Below, in pieces: positions 15 through 2,258 of a DNA stretch of 21,450 bases (within the stretch, counting starts at the first letter, position 1; every line of letters begins with the position of its first letter). The DNA is taken from positions 1-21,450 of the forward strand of contig JBGSIV010000280.1 in assembly GCA_041742355.1 (NCBI GenBank), in the 5' to 3' direction. The notes beneath the pieces were generated by a model. It was not told the DNA's origin, ran no database searches, and saw nothing but the letters and a program-made list of their open reading frames with translations. A program made the position numbers and the translations under genes. Source of the stretch: Candidatus Zixiibacteriota bacterium (GTDB lineage Bacteria; Zixibacteria; MSB-5A5; GN15; FEB-12).

Positions 15-54
15 ACTCTCTCCTCCACGACGACGGGGGAGAGAGTTCTTTTTT
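15..54 (+). terminator. Rho-independent terminator of a transcript upstream of the window
   Basis: Stem ACTCTCTCCTCC (15-26) / GGGGGAGAGAGT (35-46), 8-nt loop, followed by TCTTTTTT. Confidence 0.8.
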
Positions 55-144
55 GTGGTGTCAGGTGTCCTCACCTGACACCACAAATGAACGATGAGCA
101 GCAACATGCTCTCTGTGCTGTCATGTGTCCCCACCTGACAGCAC
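55..144. repeat. Two related 30-bp palindromes 60 bp apart
   Basis: GTGGTGTCAGGTG-TCCT-CACCTGACACCAC (55-84) and GTGCTGTCATGTG-TCCC-CACCTGACAGCAC (115-144); compensatory G-C/C-G swap at position 4. Confidence 0.85.
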
Positions 145-186
145 AGAGAGATCGGATAATAGCGCCGCGAACTTGAATCTCCGCAG

Positions 187-519
187 CGTCGGCCGGGTCC
201 CGAGCTGCTTCACCCCCGAGCGGTCGCAAACCGACTTTCTTCCCGGAAGTAGGTCAGGCTCCTTGGAGCCTGACACAAACAGAAACAAAGCGAAAAAGAG
301 AAGATACGCTCGACAACTCCAACCCCCGTTCCGCAGGGTCTTGCGCGATTCCGAGCAAAGCGAGGGAGAGCGCGTGACCCTGCGGGTGTACACGGCTGAT
401 TTCTTCGTTCCGCAGTGTCTTGCGCGACCCCGAGTACAGCGAGGGAGAGCGTGTGACCCTGCGGAAGAGCGCGGCTGACACGCACACGCCGTGCGCGGCC
501 GATGTCCACATCGGCCGCG
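187..519 (+). repeat. REP-like mosaic cluster 1
   Basis: GTAGGTCAGGCTCCTTGGAGCCTGAC at 249-274 (identical copy at 10337-10362); two long hairpins CCGCAG(G/T)GTC...GACCCTGCGG at 331-385 and 408-466; hairpin CGCGGCCGATG-TCCA-CATCGGCCGCG at 494-519. The last two types recur at 19535-19641. Confidence 0.85.
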
Positions 520-674
520 AAGAGGCGTCGCCTACCCCCGCCCCTCAAGCCAAACTGGGAGATTAGTTTCGCCCCCACACGACGGCAGCAGATTCTGCGA
601 CAGAACCCGGCATAAACTGCGATATGGGCTCCGAAAGCACTTTTCGCGACATCCGCGCATTCACCGTAAGCATC

Positions 675-733
675 TTGACGGCAGCATCTTGCGTGGATAT
701 TAACGGTTCCGGCACGGGGTTTGTATATATACT
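675..733 (+). promoter_or_regulatory. Putative sigma70-type promoter(s) for the 738-838 RNA
   Basis: TTGACG (675-680)-N17-TATTAA (698-703); alternatively TTAACG (700-705)-N18-TATATA (724-729) or TATACT (728-733) just before the structured region; AGCATCTTG direct repeat at 669-677 and 683-691. Confidence 0.45.
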
Positions 734-737
734 TGGC

Positions 738-838
738 ATCGGGTAGCAAGGTAGTGCGACAGACCCGCAACCTGACGCATTACACGGAAGTGTTGAGCAG
801 TATTTCTTGGCGGTTAAACTGCTTAGAGCTTTCCCGAT
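738..838 (+). ncRNA. Candidate structured non-coding RNA, family not recognised
   Basis: Ends pair (ATCGGGTAGC / GCTTTCCCGAT); internal stems GTAGTGCG/CGCATTAC with CAG-ACCCGCAAC-CTG, ACAC-GGAA-GTGT, and GAGCAGT/ACTGCTT; lies between an AT-rich promoter-like sequence and a + strand terminator; no credible ORF. Confidence 0.6.
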
Positions 839-845
839 TGGTGAG

Positions 846-880
846 GAGAGAGAGGCCTCGAGCGATCGAGGCCTTTTTCT
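846..880 (+). terminator. Rho-independent terminator (+ polarity, possibly bidirectional)
   Basis: AGGCCTCGA-GCGA-TCGAGGCCT followed by TTTTCT; GNRA loop; T tract on the + side. Confidence 0.85.
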
Positions 881-921
881 GTTACGACAACGAAACCTGG
901 TAATCCCTGCCCGCGCACCCC

Positions 922-1953
922 TTACTTCAGTATATACCCCTGTATCTCCTCATCCGCCGCAGGTTTGACAACCATCGTCCGCCCCCCGGCCCCATTGTCA
1001 AACACCGTCACTTCCACCTCCGGCAGCGCTTTCGATTCGCAATACCGCGCCGTAATCGAGGCCGCCAGCCTCACCACCTCTTCCGGCGGATTCGCCCCCA
1101 CCAGCAGCGTCACCGGCGACCCGATCCCCATCGCCTCTATATGCACATGGTAATTCCGCTTCACCGCCATCAGGTGGTCGTTGTCCTCCTCATGCCGCCC
1201 CACCACCAGCTTGTAATCGGGCGTCAGACGGAAATGCCGCCCGTACTTCAGCAGATTCAGATCGTCAAAACTCAACCGCCCCGTATGCGCCAGAAGATCC
1301 CGCAAACGGTTCGAATACCCAACATCCGTCAGCAAACACCCCGATGCCGGAGTCGGATAGTCCTCCAGCCCAAACTGCACCGCCAGCTCCATCTGGCGCT
1401 TGCGCGACCGCCCCTCGATCCGCTCCAGCTTCTCCCGATCCACCATCCCCGATTTCTCCGGATCGGTCGGGGGGAGGAGCTTCGCCGAAAGCGGTCGCAG
1501 CAGTTTCCCCTCCAGCCCCGTCTCATTCTCAATCAGACGCATCCTCGGCTTGACCTGCGACATCGGGCGCTGTCCCACCACCTCGCCCGTGATGATAAAG
1601 TCCGCGTTCACCATCTCCATGAACGTCTTCGCCTCGTTCAGCATGAGAATGCGGCAATCGGTGCATGGATTCATGTTCCGGCCGCGCCCGAACCGGGGGT
1701 TCTCGACAATATCCACGAACTTCTGCCCGAGGTGCATCAGCTTGACATTGAACCCGAACTTCTCGGCCGCCGGGTAGGGATTCGACCCGCACGACGACCG
1801 ATCCCCGAGGTCGCACCCGAAGTGCGTCATGAACGTCAGCGCGGTCACTTCGATATTCTGGCGCAGCATGAGCAGGATCGCCAGCGCGGAGTCCAATCCG
1901 CCGGAAAAGAGCGCGATCGCATGCCCCCGTTTGGCCCCTTCAGCATTATACAT
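922..1953 (-). CDS. PP-loop ATPase, tRNA sulfurtransferase-like (ThiI/MnmA-related) with probable C-terminal DUF814/NFACT-R-like domain
   Basis: ALFSGGLDS PP-loop, NPCTDCR, ITGEVVGQRPMSQ, LLRPLSAKLL, GRSRKRQ, PASGCLLT, GRHFR motifs; GGAG upstream of ATG; no THUMP domain visible. Confidence 0.85.
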   Translation of the reverse strand: MYNAEGAKRGHAIALFSGGLDSALAILLMLRQNIEVTALTFMTHFGCDLGDRSSCGSNPYPAAEKFGFNVKLMHLGQKFVDIVENPRFGRGRNMNPCTDCRILMLNEAKTFMEMVNADFIITGEVVGQRPMSQVKPRMRLIENETGLEGKLLRPLSAKLLPPTDPEKSGMVDREKLERIEGRSRKRQMELAVQFGLEDYPTPASGCLLTDVGYSNRLRDLLAHTGRLSFDDLNLLKYGRHFRLTPDYKLVVGRHEEDNDHLMAVKRNYHVHIEAMGIGSPVTLLVGANPPEEVVRLAASITARYCESKALPEVEVTVFDNGAGGRTMVVKPAADEEIQGYILK

Positions 1954-2142
1954 AGCCTGTCACAGTCTCCATTGCCCGGCGGGTTCCGACCGTTTGTACC
2001 GGCCGCATGTTCGTTTCGTTCGTTTTCGGTCCCTGGCCGGGGACAATATACCGCTTACGCCCGCCCGCCGACAGGACAATCGCGCCCTCCCGTCGGGCCA
2101 CCACTCGCGCCACCGGCACGGTCCGTCCGCGGCCAATTGACC

Positions 2143-2171
2143 TTGACTTCAACAGATCCGGCGGCTAATAT
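2143..2171 (+). promoter_or_regulatory. sigma70-type promoter of the mla operon
   Basis: TTGACT (2143-2148)-N17-TAATAT (2166-2171). Confidence 0.7.
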
Positions 2172-2258
2172 AGAAACCAATCGGCTAACGAAAGGACGGA
2201 CGGTATAATTTCGGCCTTCAACAACTGGCTCAAGCGCTTCGCGTACGAGCTGCAGCAG

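Follow-up and report, generated by a model that had tools for sequence, protein, structure and literature searches.

A real non-coding RNA gene without an Rfam match, here called RNA A, lies at ~736-881 on the plus strand of the window, the whole stretch of 21,450 nucleotides of Zixibacteria DNA that we analysed. RNA A is very probably a small RNA transcribed from a sigma-54 promoter. We further propose, with a probability of roughly 0.45, that it is a trans-acting regulatory sRNA and the output of a sigma-54 relay, in which RNA A and a sibling, RNA B, act by lineage-specific base pairing. The analyses below demonstrate the gene, its fold, the conservation of its promoter and enhancer, the sibling, and the presence of RNA A in RNA libraries. 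The features of the region are as follows.

588..599, plus strand: distal enhancer, a putative activator-binding site of the form CA-N5-TGCG; a second site in many homologues
610..621, plus strand: predicted proximal enhancer site, ~100 bp upstream of the -24 GG
666..677, plus strand: a weakly matching possible IHF site, differing at one base from the search pattern
710..725, plus strand: sigma-54 promoter with the -24 GG at 711-712 and the -12 element at 721-724, from a profile of 50 promoters
736..881, plus strand: small RNA gene (RNA A), its start placed by promoter spacing and its end by the terminator
738..838, plus strand: P1 closing stem, 738-743/833-838, with covariation
751..783, plus strand: P2, a variable arm whose CCGCAA loop (765-770) is an optional partner of the P4 loop
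782..793, plus strand: GNRA hairpin proposed by the sequence-only reading, not conserved (3/53)
795..824, plus strand: P4, with a covarying stem 795-801/818-824 and the conserved loop motif UGGCGGU at 808-814
840..848, plus strand: conserved G-rich, Shine-Dalgarno-like (SD-like) strand GGUGAGGAG
851..881, plus strand: intrinsic terminator hairpin, 851-861/866-876, with U tract, from folding and covariation
922..1953, minus strand: convergent ThiI-like/NFACT-R gene (context)

The sequence-only reading, made before any database search, had described a structured unit of ~100 nt. All sequences and helices it quoted were found where it placed them (P1 738-743/833-838, P2 751-783, P4 795-801/818-824, terminator 851-876), and a structured RNA is indeed present, but the transcript is longer: with the G-rich strand and the terminator it would measure ~145 nt, its ends being set by promoter spacing and the terminator. 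The stretch 738-880 folded better than its shuffles (z -4.6, 0/200 as good). After removal of the terminator, 738-845 reached only z -1.5, and 15/200 shuffles were equally good; most of the folding excess is the terminator. In a comparison with Rfam 15, nothing in the window reached the gathering score and the best sub-threshold match covered the terminator only; 10 RNA A homologue loci gave no match either. No 6S RNA match was found in the whole genome at E up to 1, and the RNA A fold is not a long bulged hairpin; SRP RNA and tmRNA lie elsewhere in the genome. Family-model searches, with other loci filling the SRP and tmRNA roles, thus ruled out 6S, SRP, tmRNA and tRNA as identities for RNA A. 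Two palindromic REP-like repeat families, with units of 32 nt and 73 nt, were observed upstream of the enhancer at window positions 52-150 and 327-478.

A covariance model built from 11 sequences detected one RNA A copy each in 43/55 genomes of the host family, in 2/15 of the neighbouring family, and in none of the other 80 genomes searched. BLAST recovered the region in 7/40 relatives. A pattern scan of species genomes yielded 89 stretches, and a profile then recovered further true copies. A search of the genome itself found one copy, as had been claimed from the window. In an alignment of 20 homologues made from sequence alone, P1, P4 and the terminator were paired in 94.4% of cells, and 32-57% were paired in slid controls; two-sided changes occurred at 13/21 pairs of these helices, a number reached by 0/500 shuffles. 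The model-fitted alignment, which leans to structure, showed such changes at 33/34 pairs; it comprised 56 distinct rows, including two spurious opposite-strand matches and one partial match. There, P2 was 65-77% paired; it is shortened or replaced in many homologues. P1 and P4 therefore covary, while P2 is real but variable. The motif UGGCGGU was present in the P4 loop of 49/53 homologues, and the G-rich strand contained GUGAGG in 49/53 and GAGGA in 50/53; these counts lean upward, since the searches used the motifs. The 7-mer is constant across RNAs of 0.36-0.62 GC. A mini-stem that would close the putative seed loop around this motif showed no covariation, which counts for the pairing proposal. 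Two homologues (L141, L144) had P1, the G-rich strand and the terminator without the P4 motif. The proposed hairpin ACAC-GGAA-GTGT did not survive comparison, a 4-bp GNRA hairpin being found in 3/53 homologues. The stretch ACA-N-GGAAG at window 782-790 was present in 6/53 and resembles one of the GGA motifs of flagellin leaders.

The sequence-only reading had also pointed to kissing loops and a possibly ribozyme-like RNA. Complementarity between the two loops does exist here (765-768 with 810-813), but it is optional at best and does not define the family. CCGC or UCGC occurred in a predicted upstream loop in 18/49 homologues and anywhere 5' of P4 in 27/52; in the model-fitted alignment 25/56 rows were without an alignable loop, and the loop-loop pair had no two-sided change. 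As judged from these alignments, the kissing loop would be optional, possible in about half of the homologues and without compensatory change. A kissing-loop tertiary fold might instead be central to function, as it would be in a ribozyme or a ligand-sensing RNA. In favour of this, 92.7% of cells pair in rows with both loops (5 via U-G wobbles), and the CCGCAA loop is old, since it occurs in the neighbouring family as well (L146). Against this stand the rows without a loop, the missing two-sided change, the absence of a CCGC-type upstream loop from RNA B (0/35), and the lack of any Rfam ribozyme or riboswitch match. Conservation moreover sits in one loop and one linker; the junction is not conserved, and P2 varies or is lost. 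A self-cleaving ribozyme is not supported, given the varying junction and P2 and the optional loop-loop contact, and we regard a kissing-loop core in general as highly improbable.

The AT-rich stretch TATATATACT had been read as promoter-like; no sigma-70 site was called, and it is the spacer of the sigma-54 promoter at 710-725. A GGCA-N6-TTG motif, which we take to be the sigma-54 -24/-12 signature, stood ~25 nt before the start of every well-bounded RNA A homologue. It was found at 52/54 RNA A loci, a constant distance upstream of a non-coding unit that ends in a terminator, compared with 0.7% of random windows. The site CA-N5-TGCG ~100 bp upstream was found at 50/52 promoter-bearing loci versus 1.4% of random windows, and many homologues had a second copy ~22-23 bp, or two helical turns, upstream of the proximal one. 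A core resembling what we assume to be the IHF pattern (666..677) occurred at 17/52 loci against 0.9% of random windows. Neither promoter nor enhancer was part of the RNA A covariance model. With a conserved site 80-150 bp upstream in 50/52 RNA A and 35/35 RNA B loci, both RNAs have the promoter and enhancer layout of sigma-54 enhancer-driven sRNAs. The genome has rpoN, two HU/IHF-family genes and 27 matches to sigma-54 activator domains, 22 of them strong; no activator gene was found to recur beside RNA A or RNA B. The promoter was not found in 2/54 RNA A loci, which counts against the proposed relay. L131 and L134, RNA A homologues in two genomes of a single genus, showed no sigma-54 motif at the usual place, and another structured stretch lay upstream. 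The sigma-54 promoter with its enhancer, like the sibling RNA, is what the sequence-only reading had missed.

The same convergent neighbour gene was found at 38/54 RNA A loci. At 44/54, RNA A was preceded by a gene whose product is a secreted protein bearing a type IX-like sorting domain. In one genome only (L114, G013:C2), a large sigma-54 activator gene lay directly downstream of RNA A.

In order to look for transcripts, contigs of four sequencing runs were compared with window positions 300-2200; the runs had been found using the RNA A stretch, and there was no DNA control. In three RNA libraries from three studies, contigs covered only 755-880, with a depth of up to 1,483 in one library; they show neither strand nor ends, and the uncovered flanks were not taken as proof of silence. 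One RNA library also contained a second RNA A variant, with flanks resembling those of homologues L130, L132 and L133. In run X2, which is RNA only by guess, a contig lay in the neighbouring gene too. This cover is supporting, not conclusive. One could still argue that there is no functional RNA here, and that a conserved terminator of the convergent gene merely lies beside chance structure; the unit minus its terminator is only weakly better than shuffles (z -1.5), and the contigs give neither strand nor ends. However, P1 and P4 covary, promoter and enhancer are fixed, the library cover is confined to the gene, and RNA A is kept at 16/54 loci that showed no sign of the convergent gene. We therefore find this explanation scarcely credible. 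The earlier view of a stand-alone, trans-acting and uncatalogued RNA is supported by the covariation, the RNA-library contigs, the model search and the lack of an Rfam match.

RNA B was found by enhancer scoring of 474 sigma-54-like sites; among the 88 scored intergenic sigma-54 sites, the two best enhancer scores were those of RNA A and RNA B. It is a unit of ~100 nt in the same genome (G000:C20, ~35129-35228, plus strand; listed also as 35103-35228 and as L224:1230-1329), and consists of a single hairpin with a UGGCGGU loop, followed by GGUGGGGA and a terminator whose loop is often GUGAGG. It has neither P1 nor P2. A model of RNA B matched 115/151 genomes of the phylum, 111 at E 2e-4 or better, in 9/19 families; promoter, enhancer and motif were confirmed together in 12/20 loci from other families, and not in the partial matches of two families. 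In Rfam it had sub-threshold matches only, none at gathering score. Its enhancer was present at 35/35 family loci, which had not been selected on the enhancer, and at 34 of these it is the perfect palindrome CGCA-N5-TGCG. RNA B adjoins lpdA in 29/35 loci. A second sibling-like copy was seen in one genome (G023:C8:83708-83766), with C at the position preceding UGGCGGU.

The same CGCA-N5-TGCG palindrome was found upstream of the secreted-protein gene in 14/21 regions, ~400 bp before the start in most, and no sigma-54 promoter was found at this palindrome. In this genome the gene is cut at a contig end (G000:C166:6100-7146; relatives L333-L352). It has a very strong SD with a UUG start, and many regions contain a sigma-70 promoter together with what is presumably an ECF-like motif. 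From the shared site, one activator seems to reach two sRNAs and the secreted protein. A third sigma-54 short RNA, RNA C, follows an activator gene (L271:1618-1750, G000:C217, plus strand); it is pyrimidine-rich with the terminator loop GAGGG, and 18 homologues were recovered from 30 loci. It has no enhancer in common with A and B and is distinct from both. Pairing of RNA A with RNA B, or of either with RNA C, was no better than with shuffles.

RNA A and RNA B are very probably a new pair of sibling sRNAs under sigma-54 control, and their layout resembles that of Qrr, CrcZ/Y or GlmY/Z. In Vibrio, one enhancer-binding activator, LuxO, and sigma-54 drive several scattered sRNA genes, Qrr1-4, which share a motif and act by pairing (PMC2632942), an arrangement much like that of RNA A/B. 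The Qrr RNAs differ in that they need Hfq and are sequence paralogues, whereas here no Hfq was found, the folds are unrelated and there is no Rfam match. In Enterobacteriaceae, activator sites for GlrR, an IHF site and a sigma-54 promoter precede the two sRNAs glmY and glmZ (PMC3045617), the same promoter layout as that of RNA A. GlmZ uses one of its single-stranded regions to pair and so counter a hairpin that blocks the SD (PMC2267818), and the SD-like seed of RNA A could act in the same manner. In contrast to GlmY/GlmZ, neither RapZ nor Hfq was found here, the activator site is another one, and no conserved hairpin target was found; membership in that system was rejected, as RapZ was not found in the host. 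CbrB and sigma-54 of Pseudomonadaceae drive CrcZ and CrcY, two RpoN-dependent antagonists of Hfq-Crc (PMC6292655), which resemble RNA A/B as a sibling pair. RNA A and B are, however, short and G-rich with one loop motif. CrcZ and CrcY are reportedly long RNAs with many A-rich sites for Hfq-Crc. In Myxococcus, Pxr, under Nla19, is a ~108-nt sRNA of three hairpins with a predicted sigma-54 promoter (PMC5568312), and is thus short and structured like RNA A; pxr adjoins its activator gene, whereas no activator gene recurs beside RNA A or B, and there is no Rfam match. The G-rich single strands of RosA in Bacillus subtilis pair with C-rich sRNAs (PMC8216469) and recall those of RNA A/B, but RosA has a sigma-A promoter, and the pyrimidine-rich candidate here, RNA C, pairs no better than shuffles. 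In their transcription RNA A and B would work like these relays, yet they belong to none of Qrr, CrcZ/Y, GlmY/Z and Pxr: their sequences do not match, neither Hfq nor RapZ was found, their motifs are G-rich and not A-rich or anti-SD, and the two siblings fold in unrelated ways. Literature on Zixibacteria sRNAs or RNA motifs, sigma-54 sibling sRNAs and SD mimics gave nothing on RNA A/B; subscription papers and the supplements of motif collections could hold them.

In the mechanism that we favour, an enhancer-binding activator would bind the CGCA-N5-TGCG-type sites ~100-125 bp upstream and open the sigma-54 promoter. RNA A, of ~145 nt by its predicted start, would then be made and end at its own terminator, and RNA B at another locus would be switched on by the same activator. 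Both RNAs would expose two motifs, UGGCGGU in the loop of a stem and GUG(A/G)GGA in the strand leading up to the terminator. We consider it most likely that the motifs serve as pairing seeds for C-rich sites in several RNAs, without Hfq and with lineage-dependent targets. Roughly every second RNA A homologue has a CCGC loop that may fold over the seed and mask it. Pairing is favoured by the two short conserved unpaired segments, which sit on covarying, freely changing stems. Since no Hfq was found in this genome, which is 93.8% complete, RNA A/B do not fall among Hfq-dependent base-pairing sRNAs.

The strongest pairing in this genome joined the P4 loop region to the ribosome-binding site of an otsA-like gene (-27.8 vs a mean of -11.6, best of 3,475 starts), over 18 complementary bases at L157:777-795 (G000:C48), and it exceeded the genome-wide best of 39/39 shuffled seeds. 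As a conserved target this gene was rejected: of 30 loci taken, 21 were scored, nine being left out for want of a start, seed or RNA, and the pairing was absent in 21/21. The exact 13-mer of the site occurs at 16 places, at a start only in this genome. An hpf leader was likewise rejected, as it recurred in 2/30 relatives, both of the same genus and one judged by eye. In that leader (L302:1863-1920, G000:C214, minus strand), downstream of rpoN, an arm is predicted to block the SD and has a wobble seed match, in this genus only. The ribosome-binding site of the upstream secreted-protein gene paired no better than chance in 42 pairs, and no tRNA of this genome fitted a pairing with tRNA 3' ends. 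Seed complements beside starts occurred at much the same frequency as their reversed controls, and no gene recurred among the matches listed (150/394 and 150/682). They were not enriched near starts in this genome; a genome-wide joint scan of both loops gave no clear site; and no near-perfect complement of the sibling loop recurred in 32 genomes. Viral contigs gave two chance coding matches to the sibling motif and none for RNA A. No seed complement was seen in flagellin leaders; these leaders (L244-L248) contain several conserved GGA hairpin motifs, of a pattern we take to be typical of CsrA targets. These searches, which covered near-perfect seeds close to starts in part of the rows, found no conserved pairing target; the seeds themselves are conserved.

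The same results bear on a tentative second explanation, in which RNA A and B are protein decoys under the same sigma-54 control: a conserved RNA-binding protein would read the UGGCGGU loop and the G-rich strand, and be titrated off its mRNAs, as by CrcZ/CrcY and GlmY. Two unrelated folds with only the motifs in common, a 7-mer constant over such a range of GC, the lack of a conserved complementary target, the depth in one RNA library and GUG(A/G)GG-like words occurring up to three times in RNA B all agree with a decoy. Yet RNA A has one copy of each motif, and the known decoy targets Hfq and RapZ were not found. CsrA is universal (151/151 genomes), but its gene lies in a flagellar flgK-csrA-flgL cluster with FliW present. 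CsrB/C carry 13-22 GGA motifs, and CsrA might act here as a chaperone, as it does in B. subtilis (PMC6546359). RNA A and RNA B are not decoys of the Csr/Rsm type, because each has 0-2 predicted unpaired GGA.

The motifs might also mimic a translation start, the loop standing either for an SD altered at one base (GGCGGU in place of GGAGGU) or for a start codon followed by Ala-Val; the RNAs would then associate with the small ribosomal subunit or code for a micro-peptide. The base before UGGCGGU was A, G or U in 84/84 sequences counted, and loop and linker pair with the 16S tail of this genome at -7 to -10 kcal/mol, about the median of ribosome-binding sites. However, the C that disrupts pairing with the anti-SD never reverts, no synonymous change occurs in GCG, the frames after the codon differ between close homologues, and the sibling-like copy of G023:C8 has C at the preceding position; we consider such mimicry improbable. 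An unlikely but wider variant concerns the phylum as one in which neither Hfq nor RapZ was found. A single sigma-54 activator would drive two RNAs of unrelated structure that show a near-SD word (GGCGGU for GGAGGU) and titrate an undescribed RNA-binding protein or the ribosomal anti-SD, with the CCGC lid of RNA A able to switch the motif off. This would be a new class of decoy RNA, and the enhancer in common would link it to a conserved secreted protein.

In summary, post-transcriptional control in candidate phyla is almost unmapped. For the Zixibacteria, RNA A and B provide an sRNA pair that is conserved and apparently abundant, and whose promoter, enhancer and 7-nt functional motif are defined. 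Relays of this layout are known in Proteobacteria, but not with this motif or with siblings of unrelated fold. Identifying what binds UGGCGGU would uncover either the rules of pairing without Hfq or a new regulator that binds RNA.
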